A stretch of DNA of 64,000 nt from Escherichia phage EP_H11. The notes under the pieces were generated by a model that saw only the letters and a program-made list of their open reading frames with translations, had not been told where the DNA came from and did no database searches. Both the position numbers and the translations under genes were made by a program. The stretch is taken from sequence record OP688485; one strand, given 5' to 3'. Positions 8,174-9,625 of this stretch are shown in pieces (position 1 is the first letter of the stretch; the number at the start of each line of letters is the position of its first letter).

Positions 8174-9556
8174 ATGTCCGATTCAAAGGTAGTTACCTGG
8201 GGGACGGTGCTAGTAACGGTAGGTATAATACTTGCCATTATGTTAGCTCCCACCCAGTTTGGTGCTGTAATGGACTGGAGTAAGTCTGTATTCATATCTC
8301 AGTATGGATTCATATTTACCTGGTCTTCGCTGATCTTCCTGGCGTTCCTGGCATTCTTTGTATTCAGCAAACATGGTAACATTAAGCTGGGCAAAGGTGC
8401 TCCGAAGTATAATCGCTTTACCTACTACTCCATGATGTTTAGTACTGGTATGGGCGTATCCATGATTTATTATGGCGTACTCGAGCCTATGTACCATCAG
8501 CAGGAGGGTATGTCCGAACGTCAGAATATGGTAACTACCTTCTTCGACTGGGGACTTAACGCATGGGCTGTGTATGCAGTCGTAGGAGTGGCATTCGGGT
8601 ACTTACTACATGTACGTGGCGAAGATCGTCCTCTTAACCAGTTATTTAAGTCCAGATCTCTGAATAACCTGAATACGATCAGTCTGTTATTCTCCACTAT
8701 CATCGGCCTGACCCTGTCGTTCGTCTACGCAGTAGGTCCTATTAGTTCAGGATTTAAAGAGTTCCTGGGAGTGGATATTGGTCCTTACACTATTATCGCT
8801 CTGTTAACTCTGGGTACTGTACTTAGTGCTATTACTGGTGTGGATCGTGGGGTTAAGTGGTTATCCAGATATAACGTAATCGTGGCTCTGACTATTATGG
8901 CATTCGTTGCTGTAAGTGGCACATTCTTCGAATACCTCTGGAAAACCATCACCTATTCCGGAAGCTACCTGCTACAGATTATCCCCATGTCGGTAAACAT
9001 CGGCAGTACTGCTGAAGAGAAGCAATGGTTAGCTAGCTGGCCTTATGCTTACTACGCAGCCTGGGTAGGTTGGGCACTATTCGTCGGAGCGTTTGTGGCA
9101 CGTATTTCTTACGGCCGTACTATTCGCGAACTGATCCTAGGATGTGTGCTGTTCCCTACCATCATCAGTAACATCTGGTTTACGGTATTCGGGGTAGCTG
9201 GTCTGCAACATGGTGCTCAGGATATCTTCCAGCTTCTGGCTAACTTCCCAGGAGGATGGATATTCTCCGTAATTACTCTCGTGTCGGTAATCCTGTTCTT
9301 CATCACAGGACACGATTCGGCAGGTATTACCGTAGAGTCCATGACCGCTCCCAGAACTCGTGTATTCTGGATTGTAAGCATGGGAGTAATTGCCGCAGCA
9401 CTTAACTGGGCTGGTGGAGATGTAGTTACTGTAACGAAGACTCTGGTAGCAGTATCGGCTGTTCCGGTACTAATTGGAGTATTGTGTATTCTATTCGGGT
9501 TCCTCAAGATCTTTGTACCTAAAGTATTCTTGGGTAAGGAAACTCCGCCTGTTTGA
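8174..9556 (+). CDS. BCCT-family (betaine/carnitine/choline-type) secondary transporter
   Basis: About 12 hydrophobic segments. KHGNIKLG..YYSMMFSTGMGVSMIYYGVLEP and WPYAYYAAWVGWALFVGAFVARISYGRTIRELILG match the two hallmark BCCT blocks (BetP/BetT/CaiT). Confidence 0.85.
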   Translation: MSDSKVVTWGTVLVTVGIILAIMLAPTQFGAVMDWSKSVFISQYGFIFTWSSLIFLAFLAFFVFSKHGNIKLGKGAPKYNRFTYYSMMFSTGMGVSMIYYGVLEPMYHQQEGMSERQNMVTTFFDWGLNAWAVYAVVGVAFGYLLHVRGEDRPLNQLFKSRSLNNLNTISLLFSTIIGLTLSFVYAVGPISSGFKEFLGVDIGPYTIIALLTLGTVLSAITGVDRGVKWLSRYNVIVALTIMAFVAVSGTFFEYLWKTITYSGSYLLQIIPMSVNIGSTAEEKQWLASWPYAYYAAWVGWALFVGAFVARISYGRTIRELILGCVLFPTIISNIWFTVFGVAGLQHGAQDIFQLLANFPGGWIFSVITLVSVILFFITGHDSAGITVESMTAPRTRVFWIVSMGVIAAALNWAGGDVVTVTKTLVAVSAVPVLIGVLCILFGFLKIFVPKVFLGKETPPV

Positions 9557-9580
9557 TGACCTAAAAGGCTGTTAAGGTGT
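9545..9580 (+). promoter_or_regulatory. class I 36-nt element, copy 4
   Basis: CCGCCTGTTTGATGACCTAAAAGGCTGTTAAGGTGT. Overlaps the last codons and TGA of the BCCT gene; followed by a terminator-like hairpin. Confidence 0.6.
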
Positions 9581-9591
9581 CAGAGGCATAC

Positions 9592-9625
9592 GGGGTTAGG
9601 TCTCTACGGCCTAACCCCATTTTTG
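9592..9625 (+). terminator. rho-independent terminator-like hairpin downstream of class I copy 4
   Basis: GGGGTTAGG-N9-CCTAACCCC then ATTTTTG. Confidence 0.65.

Follow-up and report, generated by a model that had tools for sequence, protein, structure and literature searches.

A two-part DNA element of about 36 bp, designated Class I, occurs in 16 copies in the 64,000-nucleotide (nt) stretch of the genome of Escherichia phage EP_H11 analyzed here (sequence record OP688485; referred to below as the window). Copy 4 and the hairpin that follows it occupy positions 9545 to 9625. The original prediction, made from the sequence without database searches, noted that such elements lie upstream of, or inside, terminator-like hairpins and asked whether they are promoters, nut-like antitermination sites, or both. 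Only the first half of that proposal is supported, by indirect evidence: judging from its placement with respect to strand, arm, and gaps, its copies at arm heads, its conservation, and its lack of an RNA fold, Class I is most likely the phage's own promoter for early/middle genes, i.e., the replication and DNA modification arm. The hairpins are probably separate RNA signals that occupy common gaps with this promoter in three layouts, one of them nested. The resulting map of transcription units (promoter consensus, predicted starts, and terminators) is testable and covers a group of coliphages with hypermodified thymidine that has hardly been studied.

The window shares 94% identity with Escherichia phage vB_EcoM_IME392 (116 kb; IME392 below). 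Its + strand corresponds to the early/replication arm of IME392, and its last 4 kb, on the - strand, to the end of the late arm. More distant relatives, the Acinetobacter phages Ab1-TPeters (L205; Ab1 below) and vB_AbaM_3098 (3098 below), were reached by protein search; the C-terminal half of their RNA polymerase beta' subunit is 50% identical to that of the window. Look-ups with two further proteins led to five loci on four contigs in the Logan assemblies (L210 to L214), with 49 to 79% protein identity.

Structure, distribution, and conservation of Class I

Class I has the form CCGCTCTTT-N11-AAAGGCTGTTAAnnTGT, that is, a 5' box, an 11-nt spacer, and a core. With the second A of the core AAAGG (9565 in copy 4) numbered 0, the alignment of the 16 copies has CCGCTCTTT at -20 to -12, a variable spacer with a G at -7, AAAGGCTGTTAA at -1 to +10, two undefined positions, and TGT at +13 to +15. 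In this alignment, 24 positions are invariant or nearly so, and 11 core bases are invariant.

Matches to AAGGCTGT number 16 on the + strand of the window and 0 on the - strand, and all 16 occurrences of AAGGCTGTTA in the window are likewise on the + strand. The 25 copies of the element in IME392 all lie on the early-arm strand, and the late arm is free of them. A group of eight is found at the head of the early arm, a region that falls outside the window; two copies are in tandem, 58 nt apart, and the first one (61181) is located in a divergent gap, beside the start of the late arm at 61350. Similarly, a copy at 102888 in Ab1 precedes the first + strand gene (103154), which places it at the arm head. 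All 16 copies in the window are either intergenic or overlap the final codons of the upstream open reading frame (ORF), and all lie upstream of the next start codon. In 13 of them, the upstream ORF ends 0 to 8 nt before the element or 11 to 14 nt inside it; the next start codon lies at a less constant distance than the upstream stop codon does.

Comparison with IME392 shows 6 substitutions in 400 conserved element positions versus 42 in 592 spacer and flanking positions (Fisher p 3e-5). The conserved positions thus change about five times more slowly than their neighbors and, by this measure, are under purifying selection. Homologous two-part elements are found on the early-arm strand of Ab1, 3098, and L210 to L214; these relatives keep the core (CTGTTAAnnTGT) and the spacing between box and core, but not the sequence of the 5' box. 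Ab1 has two forms, CCTGTTTCTTAA-N9-AAACCTGTTAAnnTGT and AACTCAAAATTGA-N4-AAAAGCTGTTTAAAGTGT; its variant B retains a TAAAGT hexamer despite a 1-nt shift relative to CTGTT. An RNAalifold run on the 16 copies returned neither a consensus fold (-1.08 kcal/mol; covariation term, -0.08) nor a spacer hairpin.

The core holds TGtTAAnnT, which fits the extended -10 pattern TGnTAnnnT, and the equivalents of TG, T-12, A-11, and T-7 are invariant in 16/16 window copies. Purines are present in 14 of the 16 copies at each of positions +18, +19, and +20, 5 to 7 nt past the hexamer, and on the strength of these purines transcription is predicted to start at +16 to +20. No -35 hexamer is found in Class I at 16 to 18 bp, and none of the promoter-like sites listed by a sigma-70 scan of the window falls at a Class I element.

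We read Class I as a promoter because it is restricted to one strand and one arm, with a copy at the arm head and tandem copies; because it consists of two selected blocks at a fixed spacing, has no RNA fold, and has an extended -10-like core followed by purines; and because relatives at 50% protein identity retain the two-part architecture. Near-identical copies in one orientation, intergenic position, confinement to one temporal arm, a copy at the head of that arm, and purifying selection are the marks of a phage-specific promoter, and all of them were found here.

Two further observations concern promoter-like sequences. In three 20-kb scans covering positions 1 to 60000 on both strands, sigma-70-type matches were fewer than in dinucleotide shuffles (21 versus 34.6, 23 versus 35.6, and 28 versus 43.7). 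At 53677 to 53698 (+ strand), a terminator-like hairpin, TAGCGCTCTTTAGGGAGCGCTA, followed by TTTTTATTT, includes the 5'-box sequence CGCTCTTTAGGG, and no Class I core follows; the match may be fortuitous or the relic of an element.

Hairpins in the gaps that contain Class I

Class I elements and hairpins share intergenic gaps of 40 to 110 nt. The structures originally described for copies 4, 5, 7, 9, 10, and 13 were all recovered (Table 1), with some refinements: the TGGGAG-GCAA-CTTCCA stem of copy 7 is the tip of a longer stem, the structure after copy 9 is branched, and AGGCTGT(TAAC) indeed serves as the 5' arm in copies 5 and 10. Not described before were the hairpin that encloses copy 8, the hairpins upstream of copies 2 and 3, and the use of the copy 6 core as a 3' arm. 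In the copy 8 hairpin, the outer stem is CCGCC/GGTGG, and the spacer sequence TTTAGCGGCCT pairs with the core sequence AGGCTGTTAAA. A GC-rich stem with a T-run directly after it, as expected of an intrinsic terminator, is present at copies 4, 7, 8, 9, and 10; the stems of copies 5 and 13 have no T-run.

Table 1. Class I copies, associated hairpins, and Class II modules in the window, with predicted folding energies (kcal/mol) for each hairpin region folded with the element included and from +19
Feature	Position	Strand	Fold with element	Fold from +19	Remarks
Copy 1	3014..3049	+			Box CCGCTCCTT, core AAAGGCTGTTAAACTGT; no adjacent hairpin; IME392 homology resumes at its 5' edge
Hairpin upstream of copy 2	6321..6349 (hairpin 6321-6342)	+			Terminator-like, with T-run; terminator-then-promoter order
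Copy 2	6363..6398	+			Class I element
Hairpin upstream of copy 3	7169..7190	+			Weak T-run
Copy 3	7204..7239	+			Class I element
Copy 4	9545..9580	+			Box variant CCGCCTGTT, core side AAAGGCTGTTAAGGTGT; predicted start 9581-9585
Copy 4 leader hairpin	9592..9624	+	-32.6	-21.9	Intrinsic-terminator-like, 11 nt past element; 11-bp stem (7 GC) 9592-9618, T5 9620-9624; z -4.5 from predicted start
Copy 5	11284..11319	+			Class I element
Copy 5 hairpin	11305..11327	+	-16.2	0	5' arm is core AGGCTGT(TAC); no T-run; lost in RNA beginning at +19
Copy 6	13420..13455	+			Class I element
Copy 6 hairpin	13407..13446	+			Upstream CAGCCTTT pairs with core AAAGGCTG; core is 3' arm
Copy 7	15276..15311	+			Class I element
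Copy 7 hairpin	15305..15341 (stem 15305-15332)	+	-25.2	0	Putative nested terminator; 12 bp; 5' arm covers +9 to +20; then TATTTTTGT
Copy 8	18860..18895	+			Class I element
Copy 8 hairpin	18860..18910 (hairpin 18860-18898)	+	-24.1	-2.1	Whole element inside; then TTTATTTTT; z -4.5 with element
Copy 9	22461..22496	+			IME392 homology breaks inside core, at 22491
Copy 9 hairpin	22498..22556 (structure 22498-22547)	+	-29.6	-16.7	Branched; outer stem from +17/+18; then ATTTTATT
Copy 10	32887..32922	+			Class I element
Copy 10 hairpin	32908..32954 (stem 32908-32944)	+	-28	-7	Putative nested terminator; 17 pairs; 5' arm is core AGGCTGTTAAC...; then ATTTTTATTT
Copy 11	38048..38083	+			No strong hairpin
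Copy 12	45005..45040	+			No strong hairpin
Copy 13	50200..50235	+			Class I element
Copy 13 stem-loop	50237..50284	+	-33.7	-23	Long, from +17/+18; no T-run; z -3.8 from +19
Copy 14	51597..51632	+			No hairpin
Copy 15	54312..54347	+			No hairpin
Copy 16	55387..55422	+			No hairpin
Class II modules (5 copies)	2224-2298, 24980-25055, 28804-28880, 33019-33095, 36517-36595	+			Intergenic, conserved

Local hairpins of -18 kcal/mol or stronger within +1 to +75 are found at 4 of the 16 copies, versus 2.5% of 400 random + strand positions (binomial p 6e-4). Downstream structure is bimodal, as 9 of the 16 leaders are unstructured, and the 16 leaders taken as a set are no more structured than random positions (Mann-Whitney, not significant). 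Reverse complements of the core, 8 to 11 nt long, adjoin copies 6 and 10, and a 7-nt one adjoins copy 5; two copies have a core reverse complement of at least 7 nt downstream, with 0.28 expected from shuffled flanks. Altogether, about 10 of the 16 copies carry a stem. Gaps without Class I hold terminators as well (at 2177, 2481, 33420, 41565, and 53677), so that the hairpins are a general punctuation of the early arm rather than an attribute of the element.

Several of the hairpins are conserved in relatives, judged on 2 to 4 sequences per site. At copy 7, a stem with the 5' arm starting at +8 to +10 (AAGGTG...) and a T-run after it is common to the window, L210, and L211, and among these three sequences the upper rungs have changed on both sides at 4 positions. 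At copy 8, L210 differs in the spacer by A to G, C to T, and G to A, and pairing with the invariant core is kept in each case; the tail TTTATTTTT is found in both the window and L210, and L211 has a different core-enclosing stem with a T-rich tail, CTTATTTTG. The copy 9 site of IME392 and L210 carries a different, covarying hairpin that starts at +9 to +13, with both-side changes at 3 rungs; the structure seen in the window belongs to a 1-kb insertion (ORF 22571-23482) that is absent from IME392. The copy 4 terminator is present in IME392 and also in L212 (a 76% relative), where the element is followed by 12 nt, GGGGTTAGGTC-loop-GGCCTAGCCCC, and TATTTTGTG, with one A-to-G change that keeps a T.G pair. 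At the equivalent site, L213 and L214 have a core-enclosing stem, CACCCTGA/TCAGGGTG versus CACCTTGA/TCAAGGTG (a compensatory change), with no T-run. In L210, copy 6 again has a hairpin in which an upstream sequence, CAGCTTTT, pairs with the core. With the compensatory or wobble-preserving changes by which they are kept in copies 7, 8, 9, and 4, the hairpins appear to be functional.

When the fold was started at +19 instead of including the element, the hairpins were retained at copies 4 and 13, as was most of the structure at copy 9, whereas those of copies 5, 7, 8, and 10 were lost.

Three proposed layouts of promoter and hairpin

We propose that, for RNA coming in from the unit upstream, a hairpin with a T-run acts as an intrinsic terminator or attenuator, and that the hairpins without T-runs would be RNA-end or processing stems. 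In the first layout, seen at copies 2 and 3, a putative terminator precedes the promoter. The second layout (copies 5, 7, 8, and 10, as well as the IME392/L210 version of copy 9) is nested, with the 5' arm of the hairpin overlapping the promoter. Here, RNA begun upstream would contain both arms and would be stopped where a T-run follows, whereas RNA born at the promoter would be without the 5' arm and run on. Since the 5' arm in copies 5, 7, 8, and 10 lies upstream of the predicted start, the promoter's own RNA could not form the hairpin.

In the third layout, represented by copy 4, the promoter comes first, and the putative terminator lies 7 to 11 nt past the predicted start. The stop codon of the upstream BCCT-like ORF (9554-9556) falls within the element, and the terminator of that operon therefore cannot lie upstream of the element. 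The hairpin at 9592 to 9624 would then end the BCCT-like operon and probably also attenuate the output of copy 4 itself. Within this sequence-based account, the attenuator reading is the weakest part. This conserved promoter-then-terminator pair is in any case a place where either attenuation or polymerase-specific read-through could be exerted.

The expectation that a transcript starting at Class I would meet a terminator almost immediately thus clearly fits copy 4 only and, depending on the exact start, copy 9, but not copies 5, 7, 8, and 10. The apparent paradox of terminators placed at promoters would be largely explained by nesting for most copies; it would persist at copy 4 and, with certain start sites, also at copy 9.

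Several points weigh against this interpretation. The start site, and with it the nesting argument, is deduced from the nucleotide sequence, and if transcription were to begin at +16 instead of +19/+20, the copy 9 structure of the window would be fully transcribed. The leader of copy 4 appears to contain a complete strong terminator, conserved in IME392 and L212, which a plain promoter would explain only as attenuation, and a site at 43226 in Ab1 has the same order of promoter, then terminator. With 9 of the 16 leaders lacking a hairpin, the association with hairpins is not a property of the element itself. As for the promoter, there is no -35 hexamer; the invariant AAAGGC and the G after the hexamer are unexplained by sigma-70 recognition, and T13 (the equivalent of T-7) is replaced by C in two of the IME392 copies. 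Finally, the phage encodes a split beta' subunit and no detectable beta.

Alternative interpretations

The hairpins might be mainly stabilizers of RNA 5' ends or stems for processing by RNase III/RNase E, as in the T7 arrangement of promoter plus stem-loop, rather than terminators. This idea, also raised in the original prediction, suits those stems that have no T-run and start close to the predicted 5' end: that of copy 13 and those of the IME392-only copies at 60159, 50128, and 59313, which begin at +14 to +27 (+14 to +18 in copy 13 and several of the others). Many copies in Ab1 and 3098 are likewise followed by G-rich stems from about +16 to +18, and the Class II modules (see below) also carry a GC stem just past the core. 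However, the best-conserved stems, those of copies 7, 8, and 10, start at +9, -20, and +1, respectively, inside conserved promoter positions, and the T-runs after them, conserved in relatives, are the signature of a terminator acting on upstream RNA; moreover, 9 of the 16 leaders are stemless. As a general account of the hairpins, stabilization or processing is therefore unlikely, although it may hold for individual copies such as copy 13.

A second possibility is antitermination loaded at the promoter, by the logic of lambda Q and PR'-tR', or a phage polymerase insensitive to terminators, with the leader terminators stopping only unmodified host polymerase. Copy 4 resembles PR'-tR' in that a promoter is followed by a strong terminator before the first gene, and full leader terminators are also seen in its L212 orthologue and at Ab1 43226; the invariant bases beyond the -10-like hexamer could be the binding site of a factor, and the phage beta' halves have an intact DxDxD motif. 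Unlike in lambda, however, there are many promoters, not one, and copy 4 is an exception among them. If transcription were resistant to terminators, one promoter per arm would be enough; instead, there are 25, with terminators between units, most of them placed so that the promoter's own RNA would be without the 5' arm, which would be needless. The 30 ORFs scanned, which cover part of the genome, yielded no Q- or N-like protein, and no promoter-proximal pause element was identified. We consider this possibility improbable, and the same applies to its more specific form, in which the leader terminators discriminate between forms of polymerase, so that a Class I-initiated enzyme (a hybrid with the split beta' or one loaded with a factor) reads through 9592 to 9624 and unmodified host polymerase is stopped there. 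If that were true, the promoter-then-terminator pairs (copy 4, its L212 orthologue, and Ab1 43226) would be checkpoints, not attenuators.

Alternatively, Class I could be an RNA-level or termination-linked signal at the ends of ORFs in long transcripts from a few other promoters, e.g., Class II, whose five copies could hold the real ones. The element does abut or overlap the upstream stop codon in 13 of 16 copies, with the next start codon at a more variable distance, and its core is base-paired in the conserved hairpins of some copies. This is hard to reconcile with the arm-head copy, which has no upstream ORF on that strand, with the tandem copies, with the absence of a conserved RNA fold, or with two blocks at a fixed spacing that include a -10-like hexamer followed by purines. 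Most copies are without a hairpin or T-run, and the AAAGsCyGTT motif common to Class II and Class I suggests a sister class of promoters. Such a signal is accordingly even less probable than promoter-loaded antitermination.

The least probable reading, and one we regard as very doubtful, is antitermination of the nut or rrn type, in which the 5' box as RNA (CGCUCUUU / CCGCUCUUUUAGGG) would recruit NusB/NusE, with or without a phage factor, to polymerase arriving from upstream, so that the hairpins are read through. The host is Escherichia coli, several copies are followed by terminators, and the resemblance to boxA of lambda nutL/nutR and the rrn antiterminators is real as far as it goes: the 7-mer GCTCTTT, present in 9 of the 16 copies, equals the first 7 nt of rrn boxA and 7 of the 8 nt of lambda boxA. 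It goes no further, however, because the other 7 copies deviate within the 7-mer, no copy comes within 3 mismatches of the 12-nt rrn boxA, the boxA pattern (CGCUCUUA; rrn GCUCUUUAACAA) is not matched, and the exact lambda boxA, CGCTCTTA, does not occur in the window. Neither a conserved boxB-like hairpin 3' of the box nor a conserved fold is seen among the 16 copies (RNAalifold), and the homologous boxes of Ab1 and 3098 (CCTGTTTCTTAA and AACTCAAAATTGA) are unlike boxA. The nut sites known so far are small in number and located downstream of promoters. Class I fits this in neither copy number nor placement: IME392 has 25 copies per genome, one of them at the arm head with no upstream transcript expected on that strand, and the 5' box lies upstream of the predicted start. 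If polymerase became resistant to terminators at every element, terminators maintained by covariation right after it would be purposeless. These findings remove an attractive but unsupported link to lambda N/Nus antitermination.

Several other models of the element were rejected. A sigma-70 promoter with a -35 hexamer is contradicted by the bases 16 to 18 bp upstream of TAAnnT, which are CTTTTA-like. TTGAC(C/T) in Ab1 variant B could be taken for a -35, but at a 17-bp spacing it reaches a -10-like hexamer in only 3 of 6 copies. The sequence GCTCTTTTA resembles the T4 MotA box TGCTTTA but is located 19 bp from the hexamer. In T4 middle promoters, this distance is about 12 bp. No MotA or AsiA domain was found among the ORFs scanned. 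The TGTT-N6-T of Class I that would match the AR9 geometry (AACA-N6-TA) lies on the opposite strand. Finally, box and core do not form an inverted repeat, as would a dimer site or an N4-like hairpin: their complementarity is only partial, and the Ab1 box is a direct repeat of the core.

Comparison with known phage promoters

The closest precedent for the layout of Class I appears to be the promoter-early stem-loop (PeSL) cassette of the T4-like phages RB49/phi1, PST, and nt-1, in which a conserved early promoter shares one gap with a stem-loop terminator (Arbiol et al. 2010, PMC2839356; Comeau et al. 2014, PMC4122927). The position of the stem-loop varies, often overlapping the -10 region, and the stem-loop is thought to stop upstream transcription; the cassettes mediate modular shuffling and coincide with the boundaries of insertions, deletions, and replacements between close relatives (PMC2839356, PMC4122927). 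Class I resembles them in having promoter and stem-loop in one gap (nested in copies 5, 7, 8, and 10, with the stem upstream in copies 2 and 3 and downstream in copies 4, 9, and 13) and in marking the boundaries of gene insertion or replacement. The differences lie in the promoter and the lineage. PeSL promoters are of the canonical sigma-70 type, with -35 TTGACA, -10 TATAAT, and an AT-rich upstream region (PMC2839356, PMC4122927), whereas Class I has no -35 hexamer but 11 invariant core bases and a phage-specific 5' box. The phage belongs to a lineage unrelated to T4, and a stem is found at only about 10 of the 16 copies. Terminator and promoter activity has been tested experimentally for PeSLs; Class I is known from sequence alone. 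By this analogy, the combination of Class I and hairpins is already known in kind from T4-like phages, with a different promoter type and lineage. The nested promoter-terminator design appears to have arisen again, in an unrelated lineage and with a different type of promoter, and again it marks sites of gene swapping.

In jumbo phages that encode their own polymerases, early promoters are typically the only class that can be found by sequence analysis alone (PMC7598289). The early motifs of phiKZ and AR9 (PMC7598289) are similar to Class I in that a strongly conserved motif near -10 is found upstream of early operons in a phage that encodes homologues of the large RNA polymerase subunits. However, they are AT-rich blocks of about 10 nt, whereas Class I is a two-part, 36-bp element of mixed GC content that is not AT-rich, and phiKZ and AR9 have two full, very divergent beta/beta' sets compared with one split beta' and no detectable beta here. 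In AR9, the late consensus (AACA-N6-TA) is read from the template strand; as the TGTT-N6-T of Class I is on the other strand, the resemblance is probably coincidental.

With extended -10 sigma-70 promoters (TGnTATAAT), Class I shares the invariant TG, T-12, A-11, and T-7 and the purines downstream, but its AAAGGC, the G after the hexamer, and the 5' box are not sigma-70 determinants. Hypermodified thymidine may also not fit the sigma-70 pockets. Promoters of the T7 group are likewise long, highly conserved, and phage specific, and stems are present near predicted transcript 5' ends there as in copy 13. The inverted repeats enclosing the promoter in copy 8 recall the promoters of the N4 virion polymerase, but N4 hairpins have a 5- to 7-bp stem and a 3-nt loop at every promoter, whereas the repeats of the window are copy specific and followed by T-runs. 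In contrast to both T7 and N4, no gene for a single-subunit polymerase is evident in the window phage.

Breakpoints between relatives and the Class II modules

At five of the seven breakpoints of insertions, deletions, or replacements relative to IME392 (2296, 2991/3011, 22491, 28908, and 32978), the distance to a Class I or Class II element is 10 to 68 nt (p 1e-4). The breakpoint at 22491, inside the core of copy 9, is the left boundary of the insertion that brings in the extra 303-aa ORF at 22571 to 23482.

A Class II module consists of an AT-rich upstream part, AAAGCCCGTTCTTTTGGGTGGGGCG, a variable GC hairpin, ATAATCTAATTTGGAG, and a start codon, in this order, and has AAAGsCyGTT in common with the Class I core. 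Class II precedes the cluster of beta' genes and is possibly a sister class of promoters.

RNA polymerase genes

The beta' subunit is split into two genes, at 29676 to 31244 and 26582 to 28096 (+ strand). Compared with bacterial RpoC, the identity is 31% over residues 20 to 514 and 27% over about 563 to 990, with DVDGD at the catalytic site. RpoB-like sequences were found neither in the window nor in IME392 or Ab1 (tblastn with Salmonella RpoB and scans for beta motifs), and searches of Pfam, PHROGs, and PDB sequences, tblastn, and motif scans around the beta' genes detected neither beta nor a sigma factor. Either beta has diverged beyond recognition or the phage beta' works with host subunits. 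The Class I consensus bears on the choice of polymerase in a phage with a beta' gene and no detectable beta gene. In the literature on the promoters of IME392/YerA41-type phages, we found only BPROM predictions for YerA41.

Gene content of the window and occurrence of relatives

The early arm encodes topoisomerase II, helicases, DNA polymerase, and ligase, along with a thymidine hypermodification set (5-hmdU DNA kinase, a thymidylate synthase homologue, PIG-L deacetylase, and a methyltransferase); from this gene content, the virion DNA is predicted to carry hypermodified thymidine.

Scans of IMG/VR with AAAGGCTGTTAANNTG and of IMG/VR and metagenome contigs with CCGCNNTTTN{9,12}AAAGGCTGTTA gave only single chance matches (L084 is a coding repeat), and no contig with multiple Class I copies was found among 2.9 million viral contigs (IMG/VR) or 241 million JGI metagenome records. 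At the contig level, relatives turned up only in a few Logan assemblies. Their scarcity in the collections would fit hypermodified DNA being difficult to sequence. Rfam and tRNA scans gave no match.

Other features of the early arm deserve mention. The hypermodification cluster occupies positions 6420 to 15958 (+ strand) and is punctuated by Class I copies 2 to 7. It includes genes for a methyltransferase, a BCCT-like membrane protein, a PIG-L deacetylase, a glycosyltransferase-like ORF, 5-hmdU DNA kinase, an AAA protein, the thymidylate synthase homologue, and a YfbR-like nucleotidase; at the corresponding position, L213 and L214 have ATP-grasp and PS-decarboxylase-like genes. Between copies 13 and 14, a stretch of 692 nt (50670-51361, + strand) has no + strand ORF of 45 aa or longer; its predicted fold is strong (-234 kcal/mol over 710 nt), Rfam yields nothing for it even at E = 1, and it could represent either a large noncoding RNA or a degraded gene. 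The ORF at 32054 to 32560 (+ strand) has a Pfam hit to the anti-CBASS Acb1 family (PF23474; E 3e-6, slightly above the curated cut-off). Positions 20802 to 25390 of Ab1 contain a family of small paralogous ORFs that begin with ATGACACGTATTGGTAAAATTTTAGAAATTAA..., and several of these adjoin promoter-like elements in the early arm.

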